A stretch of 64,000 bases of DNA from an uncultured Gammaproteobacteria bacterium (lineage in GTDB: Bacteria; Patescibacteriota; Microgenomatia; Levybacterales; GWA1-39-11), in contig CAYRUR010000002.1 in NCBI GenBank assembly GCA_964427615.1, positions 17,847 to 81,846 on the forward strand, in the 5' to 3' direction. The notes beneath the pieces are model-generated. The model saw only the letters and a list, made by a program, of their open reading frames with translations, searched no databases and was not told the DNA's origin. This document shows positions 1-20,138 of this stretch, piece after piece. Every line of letters begins with the position of its first letter. Within the stretch, counting starts at the first letter, position 1. The translations under genes and the position numbers were made by a program.

Positions 1-37
1 ATTTTATTTTAAAAAACTTTAAGAAAGGAGGGGAAAT

Positions 38-202
38 ATGGCTACAGCAAACGGTAGAGAAATCTACAGAATAGGCAACAAAGCAGCGGGAAACCGTGAA
101 GTTGCGATAGTGGAAGACGGTGAGGAACATGATTTTCCAGCAGAAGCAGAAACAACTTACGCTGACATCAACACTCGTTTTCCATATGAACTAGAGGTCT
201 AG
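38..202 (+). CDS. small hypothetical protein (54 aa), not in the ORF track; strong SD aaggagggg 7 nt upstream of the ATG
   Basis: ORF read by hand: MATANGREIYRIGNKAAGNREVAIVEDGEEHDFPAEAETTYADINTRFPYELEV. Consensus-like RBS. Lies in the phage late region. Confidence 0.3.
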   Translation: MATANGREIYRIGNKAAGNREVAIVEDGEEHDFPAEAETTYADINTRFPYELEV

Positions 203-284
203 CTATCTATACGAATAAGGAACGCTCAATGAGGAGAACTAAGTGATGGTGCACCTAGTTCTCCTCTAAACCATGTAGAACATT

Positions 285-968
285 ATGGCAAAAAAACAGA
301 GTCAAATTATCAACACCCTAGGTGATGTTTTTCAGTTTATGAAACCGTATGCAGGAGGATCAATTCCAGATGCTGAGTATGCTAACTGGAAGAGATGGGT
401 GCAACTAGGACAACAGGATGCAGTCAATAGAGGGTTTTGGCGTAGGCTTCTTATACCTGTATCTTTTCAAATTACTGCAGGAGATGAGGATGCTTTATTG
501 CCTGATAATTTTCACAAAATAAATGGACTCTACGCACTAGATGTTAATGGTGTGGACTGGAATCAACCAAATAACAGTGATGGACAGACATTATATGTGT
601 TTATGGATCCAGAAACTGCCAAATGGAAAGTAAAGTTTAAAGGCTTTACGCCTCAAACTAGTGTTACCGCTACACTTTGGTATTTCTATAACCCACCAAC
701 TCCAATTGATGAGATAGATCCTATTCATCTTGATGGTGAAATGATAGGGTTTTACGCACTCAAAGAATACTTTAGAAAAGCAAGGCAACCCGGTTCACTT
801 GATGATGCTCGAATTGAATATGAAAACAGAAGAGAAGAGCTGTTGAGTCTAGAAGTAATCCCCTCTCCTCAAGAGCTTCTTTCTTGGGGTAGTTATTCCT
901 CATACACAAACACTAACCCTACAGAAAGGCAGTATTACAGAGGTAGATATGGAAGAAGGAGAAGATAA
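285..968 (+). CDS. phage structural protein, possible T7 gp11-like tail tubular protein A (gatekeeper/adaptor)
   Basis: 227 aa. 'NRGFW...LLPD' recalls T7 gp11 'SRGWTF...LLPD'. Sits immediately upstream of a gp12-like gene. Homology recalled from memory, not computed. Confidence 0.35.
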   Translation: MAKKQSQIINTLGDVFQFMKPYAGGSIPDAEYANWKRWVQLGQQDAVNRGFWRRLLIPVSFQITAGDEDALLPDNFHKINGLYALDVNGVDWNQPNNSDGQTLYVFMDPETAKWKVKFKGFTPQTSVTATLWYFYNPPTPIDEIDPIHLDGEMIGFYALKEYFRKARQPGSLDDARIEYENRREELLSLEVIPSPQELLSWGSYSSYTNTNPTERQYYRGRYGRRRR

Positions 969-1007
969 ATATGCAGGATTCAGAGCAGAAAAGTAAAAGA
1001 AGGGTAG

Positions 1008-2954
1008 GTGACTTTTGTGGCTAGAAAATATCCTACACGCAGAAAAGATCCTCCTCTTAAAATTACAGGCACACGAGGCTTTTCAAGAGGATGGAATACG
1101 CTTACTCATCCATCTACTATTAGGAATGACGAGTTAGCAGAAGCACAAAACGTACTGTACTCACAAAATGGTGTTCTTTCCAAAAGGCCGGGTTCAATCA
1201 ACATCGGCTCTGCAAGAGGAGCCTCAACTATTATTAATGCCTTATCAGGTGTTTATAGCATTGGTAATCCTGCAACAAACTATCTTTTAAGAATTTCCGA
1301 TGATGGAATACTACAAAAGTATAGCTTTGATTCTGATACATGGATTGATATTGCAGGAAGCCCAACCTTTTCCAATGTTGAAAGCACCATCTTACAAGCC
1401 TATGGGCACGCCTATATCCTCAACAAGAGTGATGCAATGGTGAAGTGGGACGGTTCATCCTTCTTTACTTTTACAGCTCTTGCCAATCCTACAACAGCCC
1501 CCACTCTTGCAAAAACAGGAAGCGCAACAGGAAATCGTTCATATTATTACCGCTATGTATGGTACAACGATGTGGGCAATACTATATATAGTGATTCGGC
1601 TCATTTGGACAATCTGCCTGATGAACTGGATGCTTCCACCTATGTCACACTTACGCTTCCCGCAGCTCCTGCAGGAGCAAAAAAGGTAGGTATATTTAGA
1701 GGTAGATTAGATACTGAAGAAGTATTTTATGATGAGATTCCGGCTACCCAAACAACATATACCGATAAAGGAACAGGAGAAGAAGATCCTCTCTATGGTA
1801 TTCCTACCTCTAACACTACCGGAGGATTTCACTTCAAGTTCGCAGATGTTTATAGAAATACTCTTATTGGAATTACTACAGAAATGGGAGATCACACCCT
1901 TGTATTTTCTGCAGGAGGAGATAAGTTTGACTCTTTTGGAAGAGCAGATGGCGGTGGATACTACTCATGGAGAAGGGATGATGGAGACCCTATTACTGCA
2001 GTACATTCTTTTCAGGAAAAACTATATGTTTTCAAGCATAGAAAGATAGGTGCGTTTGCTTTTGATGAAAATGGTGGAGCAGTAACTGATATTAATCTAG
2101 CAGTTGGAGCAGTCTCCCACAGGTCTGTTCATGCTGCAGGAAATGACTTACGCTTCTGGTCAAGAGATGGAGCCATGAGCCTTGGAAATGAACCTAACTT
2201 CGCTAACATCATCCGCACTCGCATACTATCTGCAAGGGCTGATAAGTTAGTCCAATCCTTAACTGCTGCAGAGTTTGAAAAGATTTCAGGTGTGTACTAC
2301 AAGAATTTATCCTTATGGGGAATTCCTACAGGTGGAGCAGATAAAGGTATTACCTCAACCATTATTTATGATGAACGGTATGTTGCTTGGAGTGAGTGGT
2401 TAGGACTAACTCCTAATATATGGTGCATCTACGTGAATGAAGACAACGAAGAAAAACTATATTACGGAGATGCGCAAAGTGGGCATGTAGTTGAGTGTTG
2501 GAGTGGTACACATGATAGGGGACAACCAATAGTGTGGCGTGTAGCAACAAAACAGTTTGATATGGATAAACCCTTTCAATACAAAACGTTCTCTACTGCT
2601 TATTTCATATTTGGAAACGTTGCAGGAACAGAAACTCGTATTACCTTAGTAGAAGATGGTGTTAGGTCACAAGTCCCTCTTGCTTTATATGCAGATCAAG
2701 GAAATCAAGGTTTTGGAGTAGATCAATGGGGAACAATGGAGTTTGGAGATACTTCAGGAGAATTTACAGGAGAAACATCAGGATTGTTAGTAAGATATCT
2801 CGATCTTGGAAACATAGATAGGTTATCTATGCAAGCTGTATTCCAGAATGCCGGGCTATCAGACAACATAGAACTTATGGGTGTGTACTTTGCCTATTCT
2901 GAAAGTTCTGCTCCTCTTCCGGGCTCTTATCAGCTGAAGAGAGTTGCTAATTAA
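1008..2954 (+). CDS. phage structural protein, possible T7 gp12-like tail tubular protein B (nozzle); GTG start
   Basis: 648 aa. N-terminal 'GFSRGWNTL...GVLSKRPG' resembles T7 gp12 'GSRQVNGWSSETEGLQKRPP'. GTG start directly after an in-frame stop, with a 'gaaggg' SD. Confidence 0.4.
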   Translation: MTFVARKYPTRRKDPPLKITGTRGFSRGWNTLTHPSTIRNDELAEAQNVLYSQNGVLSKRPGSINIGSARGASTIINALSGVYSIGNPATNYLLRISDDGILQKYSFDSDTWIDIAGSPTFSNVESTILQAYGHAYILNKSDAMVKWDGSSFFTFTALANPTTAPTLAKTGSATGNRSYYYRYVWYNDVGNTIYSDSAHLDNLPDELDASTYVTLTLPAAPAGAKKVGIFRGRLDTEEVFYDEIPATQTTYTDKGTGEEDPLYGIPTSNTTGGFHFKFADVYRNTLIGITTEMGDHTLVFSAGGDKFDSFGRADGGGYYSWRRDDGDPITAVHSFQEKLYVFKHRKIGAFAFDENGGAVTDINLAVGAVSHRSVHAAGNDLRFWSRDGAMSLGNEPNFANIIRTRILSARADKLVQSLTAAEFEKISGVYYKNLSLWGIPTGGADKGITSTIIYDERYVAWSEWLGLTPNIWCIYVNEDNEEKLYYGDAQSGHVVECWSGTHDRGQPIVWRVATKQFDMDKPFQYKTFSTAYFIFGNVAGTETRITLVEDGVRSQVPLALYADQGNQGFGVDQWGTMEFGDTSGEFTGETSGLLVRYLDLGNIDRLSMQAVFQNAGLSDNIELMGVYFAYSESSAPLPGSYQLKRVAN

Positions 2955-3623
2955 TTACCTGTTAAGACACTCTTTGTAAGCCTTTATGTGGATGTTAGTT
3001 GCTTCTGCCAGGCACTTTCTGTACTCCTCCGAGTCGTATCTAAACTCACTACTTATTACGGCACACTTATAGTTCTTTGAAGATGCAGCATTTTCTGCTT
3101 CTACCTTACATTGATTTGATTTGAGTATTATTGCGTCCTCTGTCTCAGGCAATTCTATGTTTGGTTCTGTTTTAGGAATAGGCACTCCCTCATACTTTAC
3201 TGTGGGAATAACTATCAAATCTCTTACACTTCTACGTGATCCTTGTATGAGTTTTTGTGCATACTCACACTCACTGTTACTGTGAGTTTTGTATATTTCT
3301 CCATCAATGATGCATTCAACATATGGATTTCGCTGGGTTGATGTTGGAACAGATTGTCTATTATTTAATGTTTCTTCAGGTTGAGTAGTAGAAAGATTTG
3401 TCTTTCTAGGAGCAGGGGTAAGCTCTTGGTATTTGTTTTGAGAGTCTGCTTTACTCCGATTCTCTTCAGAGTGAGTACCATTAACCGGAACCCCCGTAAT
3501 GTTTGACTTTGTTTTGTTAGGAATGTATGAGCCCACATATACAGCTAAAACAAGAAGCGCTGCAAGAGAAAGGAAGATAAGTTTGTTAGGTATTTTTATA
3601 TTCATTATTTTAGCAAGCCACAT
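2955..3623 (-). CDS. membrane-anchored Ser/Thr-rich protein with Cys-containing C-terminal domain
   Basis: 222 aa. N-terminal hydrophobic anchor (LIFLSLAALLVLAVYVG), low-complexity S/T/N/P linker, C-terminal domain with several Cys. Opposite strand to the flanking phage structural genes. Confidence 0.5.
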   Translation of the reverse strand: MWLAKIMNIKIPNKLIFLSLAALLVLAVYVGSYIPNKTKSNITGVPVNGTHSEENRSKADSQNKYQELTPAPRKTNLSTTQPEETLNNRQSVPTSTQRNPYVECIIDGEIYKTHSNSECEYAQKLIQGSRRSVRDLIVIPTVKYEGVPIPKTEPNIELPETEDAIILKSNQCKVEAENAASSKNYKCAVISSEFRYDSEEYRKCLAEATNIHIKAYKECLNR

Positions 3624-3677
3624 ATTTTAAATAGCGAGGTAGTCTAAGAATAGAGAAGCCATATTGCACATTAAAAG

Positions 3678-4352
3678 TTATTTAAAGAGTCCTCTAATCC
3701 AAGAGAGTACGCTTCTGACAACCATAAAAAGGGTAACAACCCCAATGTAGAGGAAGAAAATTACAACAATAATAAGTGAACCTGTTTCAAACAGAGTATC
3801 AGTTGTTGATTTCGTTGAGGTTAGAGTTAACTCTGGTGTAGGGGTTGGTGTAGGACTAGGTGGATACCATTGAGGAACTGTAATAGTCCAGTAGGCAACA
3901 GTTGACCATCTTCCACCAATCGTCTTTTTGACATTAACATACCATGTGCCCGGAGCAACATTCTCAAAGTAAAGGGGGTTACTAGTGAAATCTGTAAGTG
4001 GTCCAGGATCACATCCTGCACATTTACTGATTACAGCACTGTATGCAGTAAAGTTAGGATCTTTGACATCAAAAATAATATTGAAGGTTGATCCATCGTC
4101 ATTTGGAGATGGGTAGAACGATGCTTTGATGGTAGATGGATAAGTTGGAGGAGGAGGTACATAATAAGTATCTTCTTCATAAAAATACCCTCCTCCGCAT
4201 TTAGCAGATAAAGGGGTTCCATCACAACAAGAGGATCCACATACACCACCATGCCAAGAACAACAACCAGAACGGGCAGAAACAGAGGATGGAAGCATTG
4301 AAAAAATTATTAAGAAAGAAAAGAAGATTAATAATATTTTCAAAGTTTTCAT
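3678..4352 (-). CDS. secreted Cys-rich / Pro-rich protein with C-terminal TM anchor
   Basis: 224 aa. Signal peptide (MKTLKILLIFFSFLIIFSMLPSSVSA). Cys cluster CCSWHGGVCGSSCCDGTPLSAKCGGG. PPPPTYP and PSPTPTPTPE linkers. C-terminal hydrophobic helix. Confidence 0.55.
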   Translation of the reverse strand: MKTLKILLIFFSFLIIFSMLPSSVSARSGCCSWHGGVCGSSCCDGTPLSAKCGGGYFYEEDTYYVPPPPTYPSTIKASFYPSPNDDGSTFNIIFDVKDPNFTAYSAVISKCAGCDPGPLTDFTSNPLYFENVAPGTWYVNVKKTIGGRWSTVAYWTITVPQWYPPSPTPTPTPELTLTSTKSTTDTLFETGSLIIVVIFFLYIGVVTLFMVVRSVLSWIRGLFK

Positions 4353-4365
4353 TTAGATTTGTACA

Positions 4366-4839
4366 TTAAAAGTTGGAGAATATTTGCACAGCAACATCAT
4401 CTTTTGTTGCAATACAAGAATATTTGTATGGTTTTTCTAAAGCTTTTCTGTGAGAGGGTGAATTAAGCCATGATTCAAGAGCTTTATCGTTTTCATACGC
4501 ACGAAAAATCATATTTTCAGATAGAACATAAGGATAACTGTAATATTTATCACGAAATCCCTGATGGTTATCTTCGCCATCATCAACCCTATCTTGTGCA
4601 ATAACACAAAGTCTCTCATCTTTTATATATGGTTGAAAGCCTTGCGATACCCGCCATTCATTGACGAGTGCCGTAAGTTTTTCAGCAGAAAGATGAATAA
4701 CTACCTGTGTTGGAGTTGGGACAGTAGGTGTGCCATAAGAAGTGGGCATTACTGAAGGAAAAACAACAGTCAACATGGTAGCAATTCCTAGTAATAGGAA
4801 GGAAAAAATAAAAAACAATACCGCTATCTTCTTTTTCAT
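4366..4839 (-). CDS. CAP/SCP (PR-1/YkwD-like) domain protein with N-terminal signal/TM
   Basis: 157 aa. N-terminal TM. Motifs ...NHQGF...SWLNSPSHRKALEKPYKYSCIA... resemble the CAP-domain HxxN and S..H signatures. First gene of the minus-strand trio. Confidence 0.5.
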   Translation of the reverse strand: MKKKIAVLFFIFSFLLLGIATMLTVVFPSVMPTSYGTPTVPTPTQVVIHLSAEKLTALVNEWRVSQGFQPYIKDERLCVIAQDRVDDGEDNHQGFRDKYYSYPYVLSENMIFRAYENDKALESWLNSPSHRKALEKPYKYSCIATKDDVAVQIFSNF

Positions 4840-4856
4840 AAGCTTATAGTAAAAAG

Positions 4857-4886
4857 ATTATAGCAAAAAAGTAAAGGAAAGTAAAC
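4857..4886 (-). promoter_or_regulatory. sigma70-like promoter (minus strand: GTTTAC-18-TATAAT) driving the 4839<-2955 three-gene cassette; shares the divergent region with the 4888 gene
   Basis: Plus-strand 'gtaaac' (4881-4886) and 'attata' (4857-4862) give a minus-strand -35/-10 pair. The start codon lies about 18 nt downstream. Confidence 0.35.
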
Positions 4887-4887
4887 T

Positions 4888-6135
4888 ATGGCATTAATAC
4901 CAAGAATACAAGATCAATTTAACTGGTGGGATCCTCGTAAATATGAGTTTGGGCTTTCAGAGAAGTTGTCTGATGTCTTTGGTCAAGGAAGAACTGGTCA
5001 GGGAGGGTCTAACATGTTTGGCGATCAGTCAAAAACCACCTTAGTACCTGCCGGTATTTCTGCCAGTGGTCAAACAAAATTTGCTCCAATGGGACAATCT
5101 GGAGCTTATGGAAACACTCTTTATAATGCGAATAATAGACCTAATTACACCGCTTATAATGACACCTCTCCAGGTGGCAACACTAATACTTCTACAACCA
5201 ACCAAAACACCAACAGCACAGACGGAAACACAGGTTTTGTAGACTTGGCTGCTATGGAACGTGCTTCCAGACTAAATGCAATCCGCAACAACCTTAACTT
5301 CATAAAAGATCAGGTACAAAGAAGCATTGGTGAAGCAAGAGGAGTAAGAGATGAAGTAGTGGGCAACATTGGAAAAACCTACTCCAACCTCATAAAAGCA
5401 GCTGAAGGCAAAAGAGATACTTCTCTTGAAAATTTAGGACAAGAGGAAATAGACACTCAAAATACATACGGTAGAGCAAAAGGAAATGCAAGGAGAGCAA
5501 CACAAAGTGCATTACTTAAAAATAGATTAATGGCACGTGCTCTTAACCGTCTTGATTCTTCGTTTTATGAGGACAGACAGCATGAAACTAATTTAGAAGG
5601 AGCAAGAGCACAGTCCCAACTAGGAGACGAAGAAGCAGGAAAGCTTGCAGGAATAGGTACACGGAAAACTGAGGTAAAGAACTGGTTTGAACAACAATCA
5701 GCAAATATTGAACAAGAACGGGCACAACTCGAATCTGAAGCAGAGAGAGATTATCAAAGACAGGTTAATGCTGCACTTGATACTGAACGTGGTTTCTCTC
5801 TTGACTCAGTTGAACAAGCAGAGGAAGCAGAAAGAACTTTTGCTTCAAGACTGAATCAAATTAGAGAATATATTCAAGGCAAAGCATCACGTATCGCTGA
5901 AATTGCAGCTAGTGCAGGTAACTACGATCAATCCATTTCATCCTTTGAAGCTGTAAACCCCGCTCTAGCAAGAATTTTATCTAATATGCAAGGACTTAAT
6001 ATGGCTCAAAAAGTTATTGAAGGACTACCCACTTTTACTAATGTAACTGATTCTGGGCAAGACATAGGCTTTATGCGTGAAAGTAAGAGAGACGACTATG
6101 AAGAAAGGTTAAGAAGGTTTGGACTATTAGCATAG
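4888..6135 (+). CDS. phage virion protein (coiled-coil rich; possible internal virion/core protein)
   Basis: 415 aa. N/T/G-rich N-terminus then a long charged coiled-coil region. Sits between the gp12-like gene and the giant protein, as T7 gp13-15 do. Confidence 0.5.
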   Translation: MALIPRIQDQFNWWDPRKYEFGLSEKLSDVFGQGRTGQGGSNMFGDQSKTTLVPAGISASGQTKFAPMGQSGAYGNTLYNANNRPNYTAYNDTSPGGNTNTSTTNQNTNSTDGNTGFVDLAAMERASRLNAIRNNLNFIKDQVQRSIGEARGVRDEVVGNIGKTYSNLIKAAEGKRDTSLENLGQEEIDTQNTYGRAKGNARRATQSALLKNRLMARALNRLDSSFYEDRQHETNLEGARAQSQLGDEEAGKLAGIGTRKTEVKNWFEQQSANIEQERAQLESEAERDYQRQVNAALDTERGFSLDSVEQAEEAERTFASRLNQIREYIQGKASRIAEIAASAGNYDQSISSFEAVNPALARILSNMQGLNMAQKVIEGLPTFTNVTDSGQDIGFMRESKRDDYEERLRRFGLLA

Positions 6136-6147
6136 GAATTATGAAGT

Positions 6148-9100: not shown

Positions 9101-11859
9101 TAATCAGTAACAAAGCAGGGCAGAAACTGCAAAAAGGATTTCTAGAAAGAGCTAAGAATTGGAAAGACAAACCAAAAGTTTTTTACGTAAGAGAACGTTT
9201 TGACAGAAACCTTGAAGATATAGCAGGAGAAGATGCGCCTATGCTTATCGAGAGGTATTTTAAACCAGTGCAAAAAGCAGAAGCTAACAGGCAAAGGTGG
9301 TTGAATCAAGAACGTACAGCAATCAAGAAACTTGACATCAAACCCGGTAGTGCAGAATCAAGAGTACTACAACTATATGGTGAAAGAAAGATGAGTCTTG
9401 ACAGACTTAAAAAAGAACTTCCTAATACTTGGCAAAAGGTAGTTGAGGCGGAAAAAATATTTAGAACAAAATATGACCAATACCTTGTTGATATCAATAA
9501 GGTGCTTGTGCGAAATGGATACGATCCCATTCCTAAAAGAAAAGACTACTTTATTCACTTTCATGATCTGAGCAATGTTTTAGAGCGGTTTGGTATTCCT
9601 GTACGAGACAACACCATTCCCACTGATATTTCAGGACTTACCGCAGACTTTAAACCAGGAAAAAACTTTTTCACCAGTGCACTCCCCAGAGAAGGAGACT
9701 TAACTGATTTTGACGCTGTTAAAGGTATGGACCGTTATCTTGAAGGAGCAAGCAAGCAGATTTTCCACACTGATAATATTCAGAATTTGAGATTATTTGA
9801 AAAGGGCTTAAGAGAACGATTTGCAGGCACAACTCACCTTTCTAATTTTGTTGCTGATCTAGGAGAATACATCAATAATTTAGCAGGCAAGAAATCAATG
9901 CTTGATAGAAGTGCTGAAGGATTAGTAGGTAGAAATGTCTATGCAGGAGCACAGCGAATTAGAAAACAGGTAGGAGCAAACATGGTGGGAGCTAATATAT
10001 CTTCTGCTTTAACAAATTCCATTCCTCTTACCCAATCTCTTGCTACAACTAGCAAACCAGCTTTTGTCAAAGGCATGTTAGGAGCTGTTATTTCTCCTTT
10101 AAAAAATGACGGATTTGCTCAAAAGTCAGACTTCTTAACAAGACGTTTTGGTTCAGATCCACTTTTTGTGAGAAATTGGGATAAGGTTGCAAATAAGGGT
10201 GCTTGGATTTTTAAAGTTGTTGATAGATTTGTCTCTGAAACCATTACTAGGGCAAAGTATCATGAAGGACTTTCAAAAGGCTTGTCTCCAGAACAAGCAC
10301 TTAAAAGAGCAGATGATTACGCATCACGCTTAATAGGGGATAGGTCTCTTGGTTCACAACCAACCTTATTTGACTCAAAAACAGCTGGATTTCTTACTCA
10401 ATTTCAACTTGAAGTTAACAACCAAGTATCAGTACTTATGAAGGATATCCCTCGCATGAATGAGGGAAACAAAGTAGCCATAGCTTCTGCATTAGGACAA
10501 GTGGCACTCTATTCCTATCTTTATAACAACCTCTATGAAAGCTTTTTTGGCAGAAGACCTGCTTTTGATCCATTAGGAGTAGGTATACAGGCATATGAGG
10601 ACTATACCAACCCCGATATGAAGGAAGGGCAGGCTACCAAAAACACTGCAATAAACATTGCAAGCCAACTTCCCTTTACCTCTGTTCTCACAGGAGGTAG
10701 ATTGCCTACTAATGCAGCTCTTCCCGATGTTTCTGCTCTTGTAAAAGGAGAGACAAGCGTAGGTAAAGAGTTGCTAAAGCCGGTAACCTACATATTTCCT
10801 CCCACAGGCGGAGGGCAGATTAAGAAAACAATCGAAGGAATTGGTGCATTTGCACAAGGTGGAAGTGTCAGCAAATCAGGGAGAGTGCGTTATCCTATTG
10901 AGCAAACGCCTGGTAATTTTCTAAGAACTGCCATTGGTGGGCAATACGCTTTACCACAAGCAAGAGAATACTTTAGAGAAGGAAGAACTCCTTTAGGTGA
11001 AGCTCAATCTGAAGCATTCCTAAATACACCTATAGATCAAAAGCAAGCTTTTTACGATACGATTATGCAGCAAAGAGCAGATAAAAGAGAGGATGACAGA
11101 ATAAATGATGCAATTAAATCTAATGGAGATGTATCACAGACAGGAGATATAATACGCTGGCTGGATGAAGAAGGAAGTGTTCAAACAGTAGATCTCTCAG
11201 AAAAAGCCATCTCTACCACCAAAAAAGGAATTGACGCCTATGATAAAGATAGTAGTAATAGCCCTGCTGCTAAAGCACGTAAAATCTTTTCTGCACCAGA
11301 GGATCAAGTATCCTCAGAACAAAAAGAGGCAATCTATAAAAAGTTTGGGTTCACAGCAGAAGATGTGCGCTACGACTATATCTCTCAAGATAAATTCTCC
11401 AACGATGAAAGAACTGCATATATTGTTGATAAAGATCTTAGCCATGATGAGCTTGTTGAGCGCATCTTAACAGGTAGACGGGAAAGTATCTCAGGTAAGA
11501 TGTTTGTGAGGGATGGAGTAATTGATAATTTGCGAGATTTAGGACTACTTAGCTACGGTGAGGCAAAACAACTAAAAGCAATTAAACTAGATAAAGATGG
11601 AAAAGCAAAAACAGGTTCAGGAAGAAAAGGATCAAATAAACAACTAAAAGCTATATTAAAATCAAAACAACAGGATGCAAAAGAATTGTCAGAACTTTTT
11701 GGATCACTTACTAAAAGCTCAGAAGGTAAAGCGAGAAGATCAAAAGCAGTAAATTTGGCGAGTGTACTTAATACAAAAAATAGTAATACTTCCTCTAAAA
11801 AACGCATAGAAGACGTATTGCGCCAAAAGCGTAAAATCGCTCCTATCAACTCAATATAG
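6148..11859 (+). CDS. giant phage internal virion/ejection protein (1903 aa) with HExxH zinc-metallopeptidase-like motif
   Basis: Uninterrupted 5.7-kb ORF. HEVQH motif encoded around 7630-7644. Lys-rich C-terminus. Position equivalent to T7 gp16 or a tape-measure protein. Confidence 0.7.
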   Translation: MGFLNDILKTLKRNTLDKTDLDEKAGSFISQNVTRPTVRGLSDIKNFIKSPQSIDLPEVPDFAKRVGEINTPFGNFQPLPFVRDVVNEPFSFAANTASDLVQAGVRLAKQKPYTQYQNLKSPASKFGYNIGALANPRLKEQLGIKNNPQEVIANVAETVMGPLSVYGGGKIFSTGKQALKQSGAKSLRKILKKEAKINAKIGGFYGSMSGLAEGRNDELGDQLVKGARGGVTGIIGGGALGTAIPLAGAGTRRALNSHNKMMREESLEQFARNLPKYLETPKLDPVIAKYKRALQVDKRTAKEIKEAIYQTFSGYLDKGADILDRSTKEFLPQFDNLDPRSKAHIWAYILDRKQNLGKVPPHPLIQDLDNAIFKVAGFDVRQSGTFAGPKAAEWALRKTGKFTNLMDKKPRFEIDDRKSKVDLGEIYTNGFYSASLNKVLKHPELFKQYPELKDIKVKLEPLDLGTNGFYDPKTNSITINELAVESVDPKQLLLHEVQHVIQGIEGFARGASVGMDEKEIIRKFRPMVENLPAFRDLKTEVEKNDFIINFARSQTRSNDLRELAYDAYRKSSGEIESRSVENRMGMTPEQRATTLPYSDQGIPLKDTITRLDDGSVQEDIPQNIREIGGKIKDFITRNFSNRENTKLELFEAQPKTVAFIQEKLGIDVSKFKHTIDSFDVRHATNRHSAFNKGNLQKGEVPLTIEDFENVPLILSNPDNIRLSSKPTKQGNFAIIYQKRIGNEVYYVEEIRNSSRTLALKTMYKQKPSSVSYSLEDPNFVRPSEKTPTSEGNEGIIPQVSKTSQPISNLGNLSRQQLLKVQPRTVRLQERLNPNNLSSSNQVLPEVPSSVSLNDSIPQLPAPMNRIALPGGFVARTPGEAKRLFKKTGQAPELDFSLRNSKKPIEIKGEAQFYNAEPNSAKLKIRSQKAKENQFKTEFDEWQDHLFDTTGARTVKGAIDDVAKLMGEATEAGQRRSFENTSTGKIISNKAGQKLQKGFLERAKNWKDKPKVFYVRERFDRNLEDIAGEDAPMLIERYFKPVQKAEANRQRWLNQERTAIKKLDIKPGSAESRVLQLYGERKMSLDRLKKELPNTWQKVVEAEKIFRTKYDQYLVDINKVLVRNGYDPIPKRKDYFIHFHDLSNVLERFGIPVRDNTIPTDISGLTADFKPGKNFFTSALPREGDLTDFDAVKGMDRYLEGASKQIFHTDNIQNLRLFEKGLRERFAGTTHLSNFVADLGEYINNLAGKKSMLDRSAEGLVGRNVYAGAQRIRKQVGANMVGANISSALTNSIPLTQSLATTSKPAFVKGMLGAVISPLKNDGFAQKSDFLTRRFGSDPLFVRNWDKVANKGAWIFKVVDRFVSETITRAKYHEGLSKGLSPEQALKRADDYASRLIGDRSLGSQPTLFDSKTAGFLTQFQLEVNNQVSVLMKDIPRMNEGNKVAIASALGQVALYSYLYNNLYESFFGRRPAFDPLGVGIQAYEDYTNPDMKEGQATKNTAINIASQLPFTSVLTGGRLPTNAALPDVSALVKGETSVGKELLKPVTYIFPPTGGGQIKKTIEGIGAFAQGGSVSKSGRVRYPIEQTPGNFLRTAIGGQYALPQAREYFREGRTPLGEAQSEAFLNTPIDQKQAFYDTIMQQRADKREDDRINDAIKSNGDVSQTGDIIRWLDEEGSVQTVDLSEKAISTTKKGIDAYDKDSSNSPAAKARKIFSAPEDQVSSEQKEAIYKKFGFTAEDVRYDYISQDKFSNDERTAYIVDKDLSHDELVERILTGRRESISGKMFVRDGVIDNLRDLGLLSYGEAKQLKAIKLDKDGKAKTGSGRKGSNKQLKAILKSKQQDAKELSELFGSLTKSSEGKARRSKAVNLASVLNTKNSNTSSKKRIEDVLRQKRKIAPINSI

Positions 11860-11902
11860 CCACAAAAAAGGCCACACACGTTAGCTTAAGAATAGAGGGA
11901 CT

Positions 11903-12817
11903 ATGATCTATCTTGCTAACGATAAATACAACGATGCTCTAACTTCCGGTTATACTGTGGGTCAATCAACCCTTTATATCTCAACTCCTCCTGATAACGT
12001 ACCAACTATTATTGTTGCAGCAAAAGGAACAGATAACGAGACCGTTTTCGCAGTAACCGGTAAAACAGTTAACTCACTTACTGGTGTTACAAGGCTTCGT
12101 GGTGCAAATGTAGACTTAGACGCTCAAACTCCTATTACCTGTCTTAATAATCAAGAGTTTGTAAATCAGTATGCAAATGCTGTATCCAGTGCTCAGTCCC
12201 TATCTGACATTATATTCGCAGTAGATGGAGGCTCTACTGACGACTACGCAATATCTGTTGATCCTGCTCCTTCTGCATATGTTGAAGGTAATCTTTTCTT
12301 ATTCAAAGCAAACACTGCAAACACTGGAGCTTGCACTTTAAATGTAAATGGACTTGGTGCAAAAGCATTAAAAATCAATAAAGATCAGGATCCTCCTAGT
12401 GGATATATCAAGGCAGGTTCAATTGTTGTTGTTGTGTACAACGGAACAAACTTTGAGATTGTGAGCGTAGCAACTTCTCCTGGTGTAACAAATGCTGAGA
12501 TAACAGCAATAGATGGCCCAACAGTAACCTTTGATCTTAATGCAACTAATAAGCATAAGGTTGTCTTAGGTGGTAATAGAATCCTAGCACTCTCAGGAGG
12601 GTATTTGGATCAATACTTCACTATTAAGCTAGTTCAGGACGCAACAGGAGGTAGAACACCCACTTGGTTCTCGGGAATTACATGGGCGGGCGGTTCTGCT
12701 CCCAGCCTTACTACAACTGCTAATAAAGCAGATAGATTCGGATTCATTGTTACAAGTGTTGATGCAAGCGGAGTACCAAACGCATTTGAAGGACATGTGA
12801 TTGGGCAGGATATATAA
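11903..12817 (+). CDS. phage tail fibre / receptor-binding-like protein
   Basis: 304 aa, beta-rich, G/T/N/A-rich. Downstream of the internal virion proteins. 'agaggga' SD. Confidence 0.45.
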   Translation: MIYLANDKYNDALTSGYTVGQSTLYISTPPDNVPTIIVAAKGTDNETVFAVTGKTVNSLTGVTRLRGANVDLDAQTPITCLNNQEFVNQYANAVSSAQSLSDIIFAVDGGSTDDYAISVDPAPSAYVEGNLFLFKANTANTGACTLNVNGLGAKALKINKDQDPPSGYIKAGSIVVVVYNGTNFEIVSVATSPGVTNAEITAIDGPTVTFDLNATNKHKVVLGGNRILALSGGYLDQYFTIKLVQDATGGRTPTWFSGITWAGGSAPSLTTTANKADRFGFIVTSVDASGVPNAFEGHVIGQDI

Positions 12818-12819
12818 CT

Positions 12820-13977
12820 ATGGCACAACTTCAATTCAGGTCTGACGACACAATTGAATGGAAAGAAGGATTTGGAAACGGTAAAGACGGAGATTTGGTT
12901 ATTTCTACCAATAGTACTTTTTCTGCTGCTAATGCTGGTTGTGTTGGCGCCTTGGGCACCAAAACTTTGACGCTTGATGCTATCTCAACTTTTGCCAATG
13001 GAGACTTAATCCTAATTCATCAGTCACGAGGTGTAGGCGCTGGCAGCTGGCAGTTAAACAAAATTCTATCAGGAGCAGGCACCACTACTCTTACCTTAGC
13101 CCATGACCTAACCAACACCTACACTGACTCAGGGGACTCTCAAGCTCAAGTCTTACAACTCAAACAGTACCGCTCAGTGACAGTTAATACAGGAGTTACC
13201 TGGACAGTCCCTGCCTGGGATCAAAATAAGGGTGGTATTATCGCCTTTTTATGTAAAGGGACTACAACTATCAATGGCACGATTGATGGGGCCGCAGGTA
13301 CCTCTCAAGGACAGGTTAAAGGAGGATATCAAGGAGGTAAAGGACTTAGTGCTCAAAATGCCTGGTCTGGAGAAGGAACAGCGGGCGCAGCCAAGGTTAC
13401 TGATGGCTTTAGTAACGGGAGTGGAGGAGAAGGTGGACATGATTATCAAAACAACGCTGGAGCTGGAGGAGGAAATGGAACTGCTGGTCAAAGTGTTACA
13501 GGTAGAGCTGGTGGTTCAGTTTCAGGCAATACTGAGTTAACGCTTATTACTTTTGGTGGTGGTGGTGGAGGTTCTGGGTATGATGGTGGAGTTGGAGGAA
13601 ACGGTATTTGGGGAGGTGGCGGAGGTGCTCTTGGTATTATCATCTCCAAAGACTTTACCTGTGCTTCTGCTAACTCAATTACCTTTAATGGCTCTAATGG
13701 GTTTGCTGAATTTCAATCAGCAGGTGGAGCAGGAGCAGGGGGCTCACTCTTGCTTAAAGGAGAAACTATTAATGTTGGTTCAGGAAAGATCGTGGCTGTA
13801 GGCGGGAGTGGAGTGAGTGGAAGCTTAAAAACCAGTGGTAATGGAGGCACAGGCCGTATCCACGCTGACTACAGCAAGTCCATATTAGGCACTACTAGTC
13901 CTACGATTGACAGCAGGCTAGACCCAACGATTAAAGAAATGACATCTGGAGGATCATTTTTATTGAATTTTATATAA
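12820..13977 (+). CDS. glycine-rich phage tail fibre-like protein (beta-helix / Gly-repeat)
   Basis: 385 aa with GGxGG runs (GGGGGSGYDGGVGGNGIWGGGGGALG). Typical of phage fibre or depolymerase stalks. Confidence 0.45.
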   Translation: MAQLQFRSDDTIEWKEGFGNGKDGDLVISTNSTFSAANAGCVGALGTKTLTLDAISTFANGDLILIHQSRGVGAGSWQLNKILSGAGTTTLTLAHDLTNTYTDSGDSQAQVLQLKQYRSVTVNTGVTWTVPAWDQNKGGIIAFLCKGTTTINGTIDGAAGTSQGQVKGGYQGGKGLSAQNAWSGEGTAGAAKVTDGFSNGSGGEGGHDYQNNAGAGGGNGTAGQSVTGRAGGSVSGNTELTLITFGGGGGGSGYDGGVGGNGIWGGGGGALGIIISKDFTCASANSITFNGSNGFAEFQSAGGAGAGGSLLLKGETINVGSGKIVAVGGSGVSGSLKTSGNGGTGRIHADYSKSILGTTSPTIDSRLDPTIKEMTSGGSFLLNFI

Positions 13978-13979
13978 CT

Positions 13980-14237
13980 ATGGCAAAAATTGAACTTGAA
14001 CTATTAGAAAAACTCTTTGACGCAAAACTTGCGCCTATTGCTGAAGATGTTAAGAACATTAAACAAGCAATTAACGGTAATGGCAAACCGGGACTTAAAC
14101 AGAGAGTAATGACACTTGAGGATCAACACCAAGGTATCACAAAGAAGTTTGCTATTGCTACAGGCGTGCTTAGTCTCACTCTTATGACAGTTTTTGAAAT
14201 AGGAAGAAAGTTCTTAGAGAAAAAAATAGGATTATGA
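13980..14237 (+). CDS. small protein with C-terminal TM helix; holin/lysis-associated candidate
   Basis: 85 aa. Hydrophobic segment ATGVLSLTLMTVF. Sits immediately upstream of the amidase gene, overlapping it by ATGA. Confidence 0.35.
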   Translation: MAKIELELLEKLFDAKLAPIAEDVKNIKQAINGNGKPGLKQRVMTLEDQHQGITKKFAIATGVLSLTLMTVFEIGRKFLEKKIGL

Positions 14238-15391
14238 AAAAAGTTTGTATTGCAGTAGGACATTGGAATATAGAAGGTATAACCTCACAAGGTCTTAGAA
14301 AGTGGAGAAGGGTAGATGCGCTTAAAAAATCTACTGGTGCAAGTGGGGAGCGGAATTATCACTGGGATAAAGTTATGCCTCTATTGAGAGATAAGCTTAT
14401 CAAAGCAGGAATTCAAGTACATATTACTGATGCTATATACAGTAATGACATATACAAACAAGACTACGACTTATTAATTGCACTCCATTATGATGGTGGA
14501 GGGACTGAAAATAGGTGCATGATTTCCTCTCCCTTAAGAGGCGTAAATCCTCCTTACCTATATAAAGAAGCCCATGACAAAGCGGATGAATTCTGTCGAA
14601 TTTGGAAAGAGATTTACCCTGCCATGACAGGAGCCATTAATAGAGATAATCGCATTACTGCTGGCATGACAGAGCATTATTTATGGGATTACGTGAAAGA
14701 AGGTACTCCCGCAGTTCTTATTGAACACTTTAACCATACCTCCGCAAAAGGACAAGAACTTAAGAATAATCCAGGGTTAGTAGCAGAAGCAGATTTTCAA
14801 GCAATAGTTAAATTTTTAGGTATTCAAGTAGAAAGCCCTAAACCTCAACAAGAACCAACAATGACTATCTCAGTAGTTGAGCGTGATTGGTTAGTGAGTC
14901 GTGCAACAACCGCCAAAGAAGTTGCCCAGTACCTAGAGATAGACAACCCAGACCATGCCCCCTTTGACACCTATAAAAAAGTAATTGCAGGTATCAAAAG
15001 TACTGCTACAGCAATCCAAACGCAACTTACGGATACTCTCGAAAAACTTGCTGAAGCAACTCAGGAAATAGCCAATAGAAAAGAACAGGTTAGCAGGTTA
15101 GAAAACCTAGTGACAGAGAAGCAAAAATACTATTTAGCCCAGATTGATAGTCTAAATAAGAACTTCAAAAACACCCCAGAACTGATGAGGGTAGCAGAGG
15201 GCAGGATAGCAGCACTGGAAGGGCAGTTAGATCAAGCACAAAAAGACAAAGGGAAGGCATTAAATCAGGTAGCAATACTACAAGCAAGCCTTGATGCATG
15301 TCAAAAGGCGAATACTCAAAAACTTGATACAAATACTCTCATTGTGGAGCTTATTAAAAGGGTTATTCCATTGGTTAAAAAAGGACTATGA
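14234..15391 (+). CDS. putative endolysin: N-acetylmuramoyl-L-alanine amidase (Amidase_3-like) with long C-terminal coiled coil
   Basis: CIAVGHWN, LIALHYDGG and VLIEHFNHTS resemble the Amidase_3 Zn-ligand blocks. C-terminal ~180 aa is heptad-rich. Confidence 0.5.
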   Translation: MKKVCIAVGHWNIEGITSQGLRKWRRVDALKKSTGASGERNYHWDKVMPLLRDKLIKAGIQVHITDAIYSNDIYKQDYDLLIALHYDGGGTENRCMISSPLRGVNPPYLYKEAHDKADEFCRIWKEIYPAMTGAINRDNRITAGMTEHYLWDYVKEGTPAVLIEHFNHTSAKGQELKNNPGLVAEADFQAIVKFLGIQVESPKPQQEPTMTISVVERDWLVSRATTAKEVAQYLEIDNPDHAPFDTYKKVIAGIKSTATAIQTQLTDTLEKLAEATQEIANRKEQVSRLENLVTEKQKYYLAQIDSLNKNFKNTPELMRVAEGRIAALEGQLDQAQKDKGKALNQVAILQASLDACQKANTQKLDTNTLIVELIKRVIPLVKKGL

Positions 15392-15651
15392 ATATTGTCA
15401 GATCAATCAATAACAAAAAATACAGGGCTGTTAGAGCTGAGAAGCAAGGGGAGGATGTAGCTGTCTATTATAGACTGGTCTACTTCACAGGTGAAGTAAG
15501 AAAAATGCTTGGCATACCATACCACGTACTACTTGCAGCAATACGCAATCTAAACATTAAGCGAGCTGGTAGGGATTATCTATTAACTCAAGACGACATT
15601 AAAAAAATTAAAAAAGTGATTGGAGGTGATAAGCATGAGATTACCAACTAG
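15388..15651 (+). CDS. small phage protein, possible HTH DNA-binding (Xis/terminase-small-like)
   Basis: 87 aa. 'MLGIPYHVLLAAIRNLNIKRAGRDYLLTQDDIKKI' looks like a helix-turn-helix. ATGA overlap with the upstream gene. Confidence 0.35.
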   Translation: MNIVRSINNKKYRAVRAEKQGEDVAVYYRLVYFTGEVRKMLGIPYHVLLAAIRNLNIKRAGRDYLLTQDDIKKIKKVIGGDKHEITN

Positions 15652-15883
15652 AGATAGCGCAGCAGGAAAAGGAATTGCAACAGCATTACAAGCCCTGTGT
15701 GGCTTTATATTTGGCTTGGTGTTAGTTGTATGGAACGTGCCAGGAGTACCACAAGCAGTCTTTGGGTACGTACAGAATAACGTAATTGCATTAATTATGT
15801 TTTTCGGAGTTCCAATGGCAATAGCATCAGGAGTTGTAGGTTTTGTTATGAACCTTATTAGAGAAGAAGTTAAAAACTACTAA
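15635..15883 (+). CDS. small membrane protein (2 predicted TM; holin/spanin-like candidate)
   Basis: ORF-track 15620..15883. The internal ATG at 15635 is preceded by a ggaggtga SD. Two hydrophobic helices. Confidence 0.4.
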   Translation: MRLPTRDSAAGKGIATALQALCGFIFGLVLVVWNVPGVPQAVFGYVQNNVIALIMFFGVPMAIASGVVGFVMNLIREEVKNY

Positions 15884-15897
15884 AACATAAACTAATT

Positions 15898-16251
15898 ATG
15901 GTTGAGAAAAAATACGACTTCACAAACGAAGACGATAGAGCATTGTATCAGTATGCTAAAGGTAATGCGTGGGAACACAATACTCGAAACCTTGAGATAG
16001 CTCAACAAGTTATTAACCCTTCAAGCGAGTCTTTTATTGTCAGGGACTACGACAATTACGGTAATGAAATAGACCTCAAGATAGATAATCAATTTCTCTT
16101 TGGAATGCACCTTATAAAACAAATCCTCATTAAAGAAATCGCTGAATCAGGCGGAGAAGGTGAAGCATACGCTCAAGAACTGCAAGATAAACATTTTGTT
16201 GAAATGATGGAGGGCAGGGATTACCCACTCCCCATACCAGTACATAAATAG
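15898..16251 (+). CDS. hypothetical phage protein
   Basis: 117 aa, acidic, no recognisable motif. Confidence 0.4.
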   Translation: MVEKKYDFTNEDDRALYQYAKGNAWEHNTRNLEIAQQVINPSSESFIVRDYDNYGNEIDLKIDNQFLFGMHLIKQILIKEIAESGGEGEAYAQELQDKHFVEMMEGRDYPLPIPVHK

Positions 16252-16262
16252 AAGGAGGCAGT

Positions 16263-16655
16263 ATGGTAAGACGCAAAGAACACTTTCCCCGACACGTAAG
16301 ACGGGAAATGCGTCAGGAACAAGACTATGCCTGTGCTATTTGTGGCACTTCTTGTCGAGGACATAAATTCAATGAACCACCCCTAGAAGCTCATCACATC
16401 ATCCCTGTTAGTAAAGGTGGAACTCACGAAAAACATAATTGTGTAGGGTTATGTAACGAGAATTCATGCCATGAAACAGCTGATTATGTAGCGATTAAAG
16501 AAGGAAAATTCTTTGATGAAGTAGTAATGACTGAGGGAGTTGAATATTATTTAAATCATCCGATGAGAGAGGTATTTATGGATAGAAGGAGACGGAGAGA
16601 GTTAGTTAGGATGAACGAAATTAGGGATGAGTTGTATTCGATGGTGGCGGATTAG
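16263..16655 (+). CDS. HNH endonuclease
   Basis: CAICG...HHIIPVSKGGTHEKHNCVGLCNENSCH is the HNH/Cys-box motif. gaaggagg SD. Such genes typically sit at a phage genome end near packaging genes. Confidence 0.75.
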   Translation: MVRRKEHFPRHVRREMRQEQDYACAICGTSCRGHKFNEPPLEAHHIIPVSKGGTHEKHNCVGLCNENSCHETADYVAIKEGKFFDEVVMTEGVEYYLNHPMREVFMDRRRRRELVRMNEIRDELYSMVAD

Positions 16656-16719
16656 TAGTAATTCAAGATGCTACTAAGATATCAGTAGCATTAATAGTAG
16701 TAATTATAGGCAGTTTGCG

Positions 16720-16737
16720 AGTGACATTGATGTCACT
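16720..16737. repeat. perfect palindrome AGTGACAT-TG-ATGTCACT, flanked by 11-bp direct repeats TAGTAGTAATT (16656-16666 and 16696-16706)
   Basis: Read directly. Lies just after the HNH stop at the edge of the phage module. Confidence 0.6.
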
Positions 16738-16894
16738 ACCAAATAAGACCCTAGAGTAAAATAAACCTTTCAAAAATCAGGTTCAAATACACAGCTATAA
16801 ATAACTCTCCCTATACCCTTTTCTAAGGCAGTAATTGATAGAGTAGTCCTACTCAAACTAAATAAGCTTTTCACACGCCTTTTAGCCTCAGAAT

Positions 16895-16924
16895 TTGACA
16901 TATTATGATCTGGTTATATATAAT
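16895..16924 (+). promoter_or_regulatory. near-consensus sigma70 promoter TTGACA-18-TATAAT
   Basis: TTGACA at 16895-16900, TATAAT at 16919-16924. Followed by the aaaggaggtga SD and a small ORF. Confidence 0.5.
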
Positions 16925-16951
16925 CCCGCCCTTGAAAGGAGGTGATGTAAA

Positions 16952-17098
16952 GTGTTCATGACGTTATTTAAAATTCAAAGGTATTGCATAGGTCGTGAAA
17001 AGTCAGCATCCACAAACCAACAAAAAGCCGTTTGGAGCCTAAGTGGGGGAATTTCAAGGTCATTGTTTTATGTTTATTTAGCAATTTTTAAATATTAA
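16952..17098 (+). CDS. small ORF (~48 aa, GTG start; alternative ATG at 16958) downstream of a strong promoter and SD
   Basis: VFMTLFKIQRYCIGREKSASTNQQKAVWSLSGGISRSLFYVYLAIFKY. Not in the ORF track (<60 aa). The expression signals are unusually strong for a 'non-coding' region. Confidence 0.25.
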   Translation: MFMTLFKIQRYCIGREKSASTNQQKAVWSLSGGISRSLFYVYLAIFKY

Positions 17099-18300: not shown

Positions 18301-18313
18301 TTACTTCCCACCG

Positions 18314-19111: not shown

Positions 19112-19331
19112 ACAATTACAAACTCATTATGGGTCAGATTGTTTAAAAAACAGATACTAACAATCACTAATTATAGTCTATCACTTCCCTCATTTCCACT
19201 TTCACTGCTTTGGTTTAGGATTAGATTATTGTTTATTGATTATTAGCGGGTTAACGAGTTGGAAGACGAAGAGTTTGTAAACCTCGATCAAATGTAGTGC
19301 TTAGAATTTATACTATGACTATAGGATATTT

Positions 19332-20069: not shown

Positions 20070-20138
20070 AGCCTCTCATTATACAGCAGTTACCTTGACT
20101 TTTTCAATAAAACTGGTTAAAATAGCATATCTCACACA

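Follow-up and report, generated by a model that had tools for sequence, protein, structure and literature searches.

A probable podophage prophage beside a conserved 28-bp, candidate dif-like site in the chromosome of a Levybacteria-like CPR bacterium

Phage genes that run to the edge of a bacterial contig raise two questions: does the virus reside in the chromosome beside it and, if so, what kind of site has it chosen? We asked this of a 64,000-nt stretch of contig CAYRUR010000002.1, called the window below, which consists of a phage part (1 to ~17147) and a host part to the right of it. We hold with good confidence that the phage part is the right half of a podophage prophage, 34.1 kb or more in length, that resides in the chromosome of a Levybacteria-like bacterium of the Candidate Phyla Radiation (CPR). 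It ends against a conserved 28-bp element that probably forms the core of the right-hand attachment site, attR, and that is a candidate for a dif-like target of the host's own Xer recombinase. The explanation as a whole, phage, host and site together, seems to us a likely one. The phage is ordinary in kind, podovirus-type phages of Microgenomates having been known since 2019, and it is the attachment site that makes this locus interesting.

The junction between phage and host was compared with the Logan contigs of two read sets, SRR7082966 and SRR7082976. One contig of SRR7082976 (L002) runs from 16263 to 17539, that is, from the HNH gene through the core of the site, while one of SRR7082966 (L004) runs from 17148 to 19803, through the gene for a DUF5656 membrane protein and into that for YebC; both are 100% identical to the window. 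The original prediction, made from the letters of the window and its open reading frames (ORFs), had allowed that the element might not be integrated at all. The contigs speak against that suggestion: phage is joined to host DNA in these independent contigs, and a short repeat is unlikely to have caused a false join, given that L002 passes through the junction without a break. The DNA to the left of the core is unlike that of any relative, and we therefore place the prophage boundary at ~17147/17148, so that the element at 17153-17180 is probably the core of the proposed attR. The same early reading had found neither an integrase gene nor a tRNA fragment at the right edge, and we agree with it, in that ARAGORN calls no tRNA near the junction and the window contains no tyrosine recombinase gene.

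Leftwards the phage continues beyond the window, as had been suspected. A 29,866-bp Logan contig of SRR7082966 adds 16,971 bp upstream (positions 9717-20684 of our locus L001 equal window 1-10968 at 100% identity), from which it follows that the phage is at least 34.1 kb long; a second locus taken from that contig puts the contig's end at window ~12894. A direct repeat common to the left end of this Logan contig and to the phage's right end was sought and not found. The first letters of the window (1-202) are the end of the head module and hold the last part of the intergenic sequence that follows the capsid gene, with a 54-aa ORF at 38-202 whose position is conserved in the upstream Logan contig, and the SU10_MCP gene ends ~350 nt before the adaptor gene. 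Portal (655 aa) and capsid (384 aa) proteins encoded on the same contig match the Pfam families SU10_portal and SU10_MCP at E<=1e-5; the portal homologs all carry PF23899, and the NCBI contig to which the window belongs (164,193 bp) carries the portal too. Also upstream are a probable scaffold protein, three glycosyltransferases and a sigma-70 region-4-like protein. The large terminase is split into an ATPase-like and a nuclease-like ORF with a 100-aa ORF between them (L060:1268-3129, or window ~-15700 to -13840; PHROG terminase matches at 5e-5 and 1.9e-13). In the closest long relative the terminase (L279:4031-5627) also occupies two ORFs, which overlap and have none between them; the arrangement may reflect a conserved split of the gene, a programmed frameshift or the insertion of an element. 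Of the four kinds of gene that the original prediction proposed to look for upstream, capsid, portal and terminase were found, and an integrase was not found in the visible 34 kb. The gene that immediately precedes that of the portal (L060:8462-9115) encodes a GT2 glycosyltransferase and is conserved at 46 of 53 related phage loci (L277-L329).

What, then, is the site? Read on the minus strand, 17153-17180 is ATGTCGCACAA-TAATAC-TTTTACGACAT, an 11-6-11 arrangement with imperfectly inverted arms that match at 9 of 11 positions (10 of 11 in locus L066). When the gap around it was compared with the corresponding gaps of six syntenic CPR genomes, this was the one near-identical island. A scan of metagenomes with a 24-base pattern returned at least 120 stretches, and in each of the 126 relatives fetched the core occupies the same locus. 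Conservation is near-perfect over 24-28 bp and sinks to background within ~30 bp, whereas the neighbouring proteins are 50-60% identical. We considered the core as an RNA gene and dropped this idea, because its conservation ends within ~30 bp; a search of Rfam with E up to 10, using the window's gap and those of two relatives, gave chance-level matches only. With conservation confined to ~30 bp and Rfam empty, the core is better read as a site in DNA that is bound by a protein.

Genes or domains in the order TPR-YebC-DUF5656-core are common to the six CPR genomes and, where the contigs reach that far, to the metagenome contigs, of which there are at least 120; the core follows DUF5656 in six of six genomes, and for the 91 loci whose sequence extends to that gene the distance from it to the core is 0.24-1.7 kb, the other 29 of the at least 120 being too short upstream. 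Among the matches listed, 80 contigs, some of 0.5-1.2 Mb, have one match each. In 61 contigs a gene for a Xer-like tyrosine recombinase (Pfam Phage_integrase and SAM_1) follows on the same strand, 0.27-9.5 kb further on. The content of this interval varies from nothing at all to a trehalase, an RND-type transporter island, a second Xer-like gene or a phage-like element; in the last of these (L191, Ga0070741_10047756, oriented 210-5286) genes for MazG, a DNA-repair exonuclease, a PLD-like protein, an HNH protein and a 323-aa protein abut the core and converge on it like those of the window's phage. The site is thus probably an integration hotspot whose cargo varies between core and xer. In two loci, L172 (oriented 2830-5049) and L214 (1505-3739), the interval from the core to the resident xer also codes for proteins of 739-744 aa whose N-terminal domain is Xer-like, and these may be the recombinases of elements integrated at the site.

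Several features point to a role in chromosome resolution. Copies of the left arm are enriched (22 against 1 in shuffled sequence) and lie mostly at the start of xer; those of the right arm are not (5 against 7). GC skew pooled over ~100 loci is +0.08 to +0.12 before the core and +0.04 to +0.06 for 4 kb after it, and then becomes negative; in the window itself the skew changes sign at ~17-18 kb, and 31 of the 42 host genes point toward the core. The xer gene of L242, a locus among those closest to the host by DUF5656 identity, has homologs that are 73-100% identical among the best 120, compared with 44-62% for YebC across GTDB genomes, although these are different sets of genomes; the comparison suggests that the predicted recombinase is under unusually strong constraint. 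None of these best 120 homologs is on the NCBI contig of the window, and we found no xer in the window; the gene presumably lies beyond the phage. Our search of the literature found no paper describing such a site in the CPR. We think it likely, from its sequence and its linkage, that the 28-bp element is an Xer-type dif-like site of the host, and we propose it as a candidate for that role.

The core was also sought in viral sequence. Within the visible phage there is no second full copy, and no half-site, beyond chance. A 17-mer from the core occurs in 15 stretches of IMG/VR, none of them in a relative of the phage: ten are in conserved sequence of unrelated contigs, and one, from a giant-virus bin, has a near-full core and is probably a misbinned CPR contig.

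Housekeeping genes of the host fill the window from 18.3 to 64 kb and encode, among others, DnaB, CysRS, ProRS, DnaX, the leucyl aminopeptidase PepA, TreS, YebC and the DUF5656 protein. YebC is 52-62% identical to its counterparts in CPR metagenome-assembled genomes (MAGs) labelled Levyibacteriota, Saccharimonadales or "bacterium", where the gene order is conserved as well. Judged by synteny and best matches, the host is a Levybacteria-like (Microgenomates) CPR bacterium, and the earlier guess of a CPR host is borne out by its likeness to Levyibacteriota and related CPR MAGs. GC content is 0.394 in the phage part (1-16655) and 0.366 in the host part. TGA serves as a stop codon for 2 of 15 phage ORFs and 7 of 42 host ORFs; because it ends ORFs of both parts the code is standard, as had been deduced from this use of TGA and from the ATGA overlaps of start and stop, which we find at 14234-14237 and 15388-15391. 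The stretch from 16656 to 18313 (1.66 kb) has no ORF of 80 aa or more. Its host side holds a long imperfect hairpin at 18001-18070, GTCATTCCAGACTTGATCTGGAATCC...GGATCAAGTCCAGGATGAC, for which all Rfam matches are below threshold (WsnRNA46, E=8.5e-4), and a T-rich tract of low-complexity repeats at 18100-18300, just before the DUF5656 gene.

The phage genes of the window and the features that flank the junction are as follows.

285-968, plus strand: gp11-like protein, 227 aa
1008-2954, plus strand: gp12-like protein, 648 aa, GTG start (645 aa in some gene callers)
4888-6135, plus strand: coiled-coil protein, 415 aa
6148-11859, plus strand: giant protein, 1903 aa
11903-12817, plus strand: first fibre-like protein, 304 aa
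12820-13977, plus strand: second fibre-like protein, 385 aa
13980-14237, plus strand: small protein with one transmembrane segment, 85 aa
14234-15391, plus strand: amidase-like protein, 385 aa
15388-16251, plus strand: three small ORFs of 87 aa, 87 aa (two transmembrane segments) and 117 aa, of no recognisable family
15620-15883, plus strand: the middle one of these, a small protein with two transmembrane segments, 87 aa
16263-16655, plus strand: HNH protein, 130 aa
17181-18313, no strand: host intergenic region from the core to the DUF5656 gene, with spacing as in relatives
18314-20069, minus strand: DUF5656 membrane protein and YebC/TACO1, flanking the junction

All the ORFs named in the original prediction are present, at the coordinates it gave. 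Its list lacked three ORFs on the minus strand (2955-4839), which interrupt the run of plus-strand genes, and the small ORFs at 15388-15651 and 15898-16251. The gene block is not a chance pattern, because the 648-aa protein has 127 homologs (the best 120 of the 127 are 35-100% identical to it), many of them on contigs of 40-51 kb, and because 53 of its relatives in IMG/VR have the same neighbourhood of adaptor, nozzle and fibre genes.

Two of these proteins match podophage families or folds. The 227-aa protein matches the Pfam family SU10_adaptor (PF24175) at E=4e-5 and 24.6 bits, just under the 27-bit cutoff. As orthologs we took, from related contigs, 37 genes that directly precede that of the nozzle, a position that this gene always has in relatives, and 17 of 20 proteins (that of the window and 19 of the 37) match PF24175, with a best E of 1.9e-10. 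By family membership and position, the product of 285-968 is a predicted head-to-tail adaptor of the SU10_adaptor family and the functional equivalent of T7 gp11. The 648-aa protein has no match in Pfam, and a direct phmmer search of PDB sequences with the adaptor, nozzle, endolysin and giant protein returned nothing. A profile of nozzle homologs finds the chain 8jov_A, a hexameric GP4 tail protein, at E=3.2e-4, and an AlphaFold2 model was built on 49 sequences (pLDDT 83.3, pTM 0.79). Its best 29 Foldseek matches in PDB are all nozzle or tail-tube proteins of podophages (E 3e-18 to 7e-9, with TM-scores of ~0.5-0.7 for nearly all), namely those of Pa223, cyanophage A4, SU10 (7z4b), T7 (gp12; 7boy and 9jyz), Kp7/Kp9, GP4 (8jov), P22, Sf6 and crAss001, and unrelated beta-propellers rank only behind them. 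The modelled protein is accordingly of the T7 gp12-type beta-propeller fold and, on that model, a tail nozzle. Given the family matches of the adaptor and the fold matches of the nozzle, the gp11 and gp12 assignments of the original prediction, for which it had proposed profile searches, are correct at the level of family and fold.

The fibre genes follow suit. The 304-aa protein matches PHROG families of tail proteins and tail fibres at E 2e-12 to 1e-3, in keeping with its first annotation; its N-terminal ~90 aa are conserved, are duplicated in relatives and recur beside the nozzle in many of them, which is consistent with a domain for attachment to the virion. The glycine-rich 385-aa protein of 12820-13977 has a weak PHROG match only, and its N- and C-termini are conserved beside fibre genes in eight distinct relative contigs; it is a putative second fibre or receptor-binding protein. 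No tape-measure, tail-tube or sheath gene was found in the 34 kb seen; a single tape-measure match (E=0.05) is a coiled-coil artefact in the C-terminus of the endolysin. Portal, adaptor and nozzle, as predicted from sequence and model, would together make a tail of the podophage type.

The giant protein of 1903 aa combines a PBECR3 RNase-like domain (aa 660-768, E=1e-18) with a zincin-like HExxH peptidase region (~aa 438-518, motif HEVQH; weak match to DUF6782, E=1.2e-3). It also matches phrog_13543 at E=1.4e-14, and its C-terminal ~800 aa (aa 1033-1816) are conserved in the distant relatives L035, L046 and L057. Its domains and its location among virion genes mark it as a putative virion effector of the "polyvalent" type. 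Iyer et al. (2017, PMC5512222) predicted that phage polyvalent proteins are packaged and injected and, by analogy, the 1903-aa protein may be packaged and ejected. The 415-aa coiled-coil protein has homologs near nozzle and fibre genes in L005-L011 and weak Pfam matches of the coiled-coil type; we infer from its position that it is an internal or ejection protein of the virion. Because neither protein shows homology to T7 gp14-16 in searches of Pfam and of PDB sequences, an internal-core role for the two is proposed from gene position and domain type. The T7-type tail and internal-core module that was first described at this locus stands as regards adaptor, nozzle and fibre, and its internal core is a proposal from gene position.

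Between the nozzle gene and the 415-aa gene, the minus-strand cassette (2955-4839) encodes proteins of 222 aa, 224 aa and 157 aa, each with an N-terminal hydrophobic segment; the 157-aa protein has a CAP domain (PF00188, 25.1 bits against a cutoff of 21.1 bits). The cassette is absent from the 53 relatives, save for a CAP-like gene in L047. It probably encodes secreted or membrane proteins and consists of moron or lysogenic-conversion genes, and a moron-like cassette fits a temperate lifestyle.

Rightwards of the fibres lie the genes for lysis. Residues 1-220 of the 385-aa protein of 14234-15391, which has no direct match in Pfam, PHROG or PDB, gave 129 homologs in an exhaustive HMMER search. 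In an alignment of 36 of the 129, H10, H85 and E164 are invariant and 14 match Pfam Amidase_3 (PF01520); the profile finds 7agm in PDB at 1.7e-7, followed by 4rn7, AmiA (8c2o), CwlV (1jwq) and LytH. The amidase call thus proves right for a divergent member of its family, and we describe the predicted product as an endolysin with an Amidase_3-type N-acetylmuramoyl-L-alanine amidase domain (aa 1 to ~200) and a coiled-coil C-terminus. By position and topology, the 85-aa protein, with one C-terminal transmembrane segment and a gene that shares an ATGA overlap with that of the amidase, is a holin candidate, and the 87-aa protein with two transmembrane segments (15620-15883) is a candidate for a second holin or antiholin or for a spanin-like protein. 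The three small ORFs of 15388-16251 have no homologs in the relatives fetched. The HNH protein, also recognised at the outset, matches PF01844 above its cutoff (E=7.8e-7; 29.6 bits against 21.4 bits) and 30 PHROG HNH families; it is the last phage gene and probably a terminase accessory, with the split terminase at the other visible end of the element.

The right arm of the phage (16656-17147) has no ORF of 50 aa or more. A hairpin follows the HNH gene, and further on there is a perfect sigma-70-type promoter, TTGACA-18-TATAAT (16895-16924), followed by AGGAGGTGA. A strong Shine-Dalgarno sequence precedes a 48-aa ORF (16952-17098) whose end is 54 nt short of the core, and the basic, hydrophobic product of this ORF could be a recombination-directionality or Xer-modulating factor, or else a small toxin. 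Look-ups of the 48-aa and 117-aa ORFs found neither on record, and 16656-17152 has no similarity to any relative of the host or of the phage.

The phage belongs to a clade that is known from metagenomes. Relatives occupy contigs of 40-51 kb; a search of 50,697 GenBank phage records by tblastn with portal and nozzle gave four remote, partial matches only, and a terminase-based search of IMG/VR found nothing. In the closest long relative (IMGVR_UViG_3300048589_000210, our L279; nozzle 62% identical) a tyrosine integrase gene lies at the end of the contig. The integrase of this relative, together with the moron cassette, supports a temperate lifestyle, as far as can be read from the genes. Beside that integrase we saw by eye what we take to be the 3' fragment of a tRNA gene, which ARAGORN and Rfam do not call. 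The same contig has, at L279:1451-3395, between an HNH-AP2 gene and the small terminase gene, what appear from sequence alone to be a DNA methyltransferase and a possible endonuclease, resembling a restriction-modification system.

A number of observations weigh against a prophage at this site, and against the reading of its genes and of the site given above. In SRR7082966 Logan contigs stop at 17172 and begin again at 17148, at the core, and this branch indicates that a second configuration coexists in that sample. Both samples have breaks at ~12.87, 15.69 and 16.26 kb, while those at 17148-17172 and 17539 occur in one sample each. No integrase, repressor or second copy of the core is seen in the visible 34 kb; one peptide pattern found no relative of the nozzle in 185,579 GTDB species genomes, most relatives being on phage-size contigs; the closest relative appears, by eye, to use a different attachment site; the skew switch is not seen in the six GTDB loci alone; and the homology to gp14-16 is, as described above, wanting. 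The breaks within the core, the fragmentation of the phage at fixed points in both samples and the want of an integrase and of prophage relatives would all suit an assembly chimera, in which a free phage is joined to the host contig through a short shared sequence with no integration. We think this most improbable, for L002 crosses the core unbroken, reaching 890 nt to the side of the phage and 359 nt to that of the host, there is 100% identity between the NCBI and the two Logan assemblies, the ~33 bp of shared sequence are too short to mislead assemblers that use large k, and the junction falls exactly where other genomes hold inserted cargo. As to the breaks, that at ~12860-12890 is inside the 5' end of the 385-aa fibre gene and fits strain-level variation, and those shared by the samples suggest that phage variants coexist and swap their fibre, lysis and HNH modules. 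It is very unlikely, too, that the element is a defective remnant or a domesticated tail or particle cluster. The split terminase with its 100-aa insert and the lack of replication and lysogeny genes in the visible part could be taken for decay; the closest relative, however, has its terminase in two ORFs on a phage-size contig, the structural and lysis ORFs of the window are all intact and tightly packed, relatives form circular genomes of ~48 kb (one contig of 48,151 bp is circular), and the branching assembly graph suggests several active variants.

As regards the site, there is a real though lesser chance that the 28-bp element is not dif-like at all and serves as a promoter or operator, as another regulatory site, or as the preferred attB of local integrases. 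It is like the E. coli dif sequence at only 14 of 28 positions; the switch in skew is several kb wide and confounded by gene orientation; and the left-arm copies at the start of xer overlap the start codon in part (ATG TCG CAC AAT, encoding MSHN). Atypical skew, moreover, has been reported in some Microgenomates (PMC7143001). A dif-like site accounts better for near-perfect conservation that ends at ~30 bp between much less conserved proteins, for the exact 11-6-11 layout in single copy per contig, and for linkage to a very conserved Xer, which is a hallmark of XerS/difSL and XerH/difH. If the core is such a site, the question becomes which recombinase inserted the phage. CTXphi, VGJphi and TLCphi of Vibrio integrate through the host's Xer proteins at dif, as mobile elements that exploit Xer to integrate (IMEXs), and the phage could likewise have no integrase and use the single host Xer. 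In favour of this, neither the window nor the visible 34 kb contains a tyrosine recombinase gene, the phage abuts an xer-linked site of dif architecture, up to 9.5 kb of cargo lies between core and xer with no second recombinase in L267, L166 and L238, and every locus has an intact core on its DUF5656 side. The visible part does not, however, reach the phage's left end, where an integrase is usually located; the closest long relative has an integrase of its own, some core elements have a second Xer-like gene (L172, L214 and L179), and the phage relatives, in those parts that were fetched, showed no dif-like sequence. We consider integration by the host Xer unlikely, and somewhat more so the full proposition that the core is the hitherto undescribed dif of Levybacteria-like CPR bacteria, served by one highly conserved Xer, at which the host Xer captures mobile DNA including the phage, which would then be the first tailed double-stranded DNA (dsDNA) IMEX; the interval from core to xer would then be a cargo locus driven by Xer. 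The left end being unseen and the closest long relative having its own integrase, a phage integrase at that end is rated the more likely agent.

We favour a temperate podophage that would have entered the chromosome by site-specific recombination at the 28-bp, 11-6-11 site, catalysed by a tyrosine recombinase; the host Xer is a less likely candidate for this than an integrase that the phage would encode at its unseen left end. It would sit between the core, most likely the host's dif-like Xer target, and xer, a gene that was looked for and not found in this genome, and the cassette of secreted proteins on the minus strand would be expressed from the prophage. In the virion, portal, adaptor and nozzle would stack to form a short tail with the 304-aa and 385-aa proteins as its fibres, and the 415-aa and 1903-aa proteins, the latter with its HExxH peptidase and PBECR3 domain, would be packaged and then ejected with the DNA. 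The HNH protein would assist the terminase at the genome end, and the 85-aa transmembrane protein and the amidase would lyse the cell.

Phages of the CPR, or Patescibacteria, are sparsely described, and here the link to the host is made by physical integration, not by CRISPR or k-mer matching. The phage would give a large uncultivated clade of podophages (127 nozzle homologs, 53 IMG/VR loci) a member that is physically anchored to its host. Should the core prove to be dif, it would define chromosome-dimer resolution in these minimal genomes, provide a practical marker of the terminus for closing CPR genomes, and be this lineage's main point of entry for DNA acquired horizontally.

How does this locus compare with systems that are known? 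Among phages, the nearest curated families are those of the SU10 type (portal, capsid and adaptor), and on its sequence the phage is not a member of the T7 family (Autographiviridae). It resembles SU10, a Kuravirus of Escherichia, in that portal, capsid and adaptor fall in SU10 Pfam families and the nozzle matches 7z4b and 7z47; it differs in its negligible sequence identity, in a genome of about half the size and in its CPR host. With T7 it shares the order adaptor, nozzle, large proteins and fibre, and a nozzle that matches 7boy, 9jyz and 6r21 at E 1e-14 to 3e-12. Unlike T7, it has three reverse-strand genes after the nozzle gene and a giant protein whose HExxH and PBECR3 domains are absent from gp16, and neither homologs of gp14, gp15 and gp16 nor a single-subunit RNA polymerase were found in the parts fetched (the window and L060). 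The giant protein is like the polyvalent proteins in being a very large late-gene product, encoded among virion genes, that joins a zincin-like HExxH peptidase to a PBECR RNase-like domain; unlike them, it shows only two recognisable domains, and for ~1100 residues, among them the conserved C-terminal 800, there is no match.

As an insertion, the phage resembles the IMEXs (CTXphi, VGJphi, TLCphi and the gonococcal island) in lying directly beside a dif-type site, here a candidate one, that is intact on one side. The IMEXs known to us are filamentous or small elements; here the element is a tailed phage with a dsDNA genome, at least 34 kb long, and one of its junctions is seen. For the site, the closest parallels are XerS/difSL and XerH/difH, in which dif, with arms of ~11 bp, lies beside a single recombinase gene (PMC5357621). 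As in those systems, a short, imperfectly palindromic two-arm site is linked to one tyrosine recombinase gene, and it may likewise lie at the terminus. In contrast to them, its sequence is unrelated, its centre is 6 bp where that of difSL is 11 bp, and it is not adjacent to xer, variable cargo of 0.27-9.5 kb lying between the two. Finally, temperate phages and a prophage of Roizmanbacteria, likewise Microgenomates, include podovirus-type forms and occur free and integrated side by side (Chen et al. 2019, PMC6509639), and further prophages of Patescibacteria have been reported since (PMC12455944). By their published description, the Roizmanbacteria phages share with ours a Microgenomates host, a temperate lifestyle, the podovirus type and their discovery through metagenomics. 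The Roizmanbacteria prophage is ~27 kb long and has an integrase and a tail of the tape-measure type (PMC6509639), whereas the prophage described here is larger, resides in a Levybacteria-like host and would have a tail built on portal, adaptor and nozzle.

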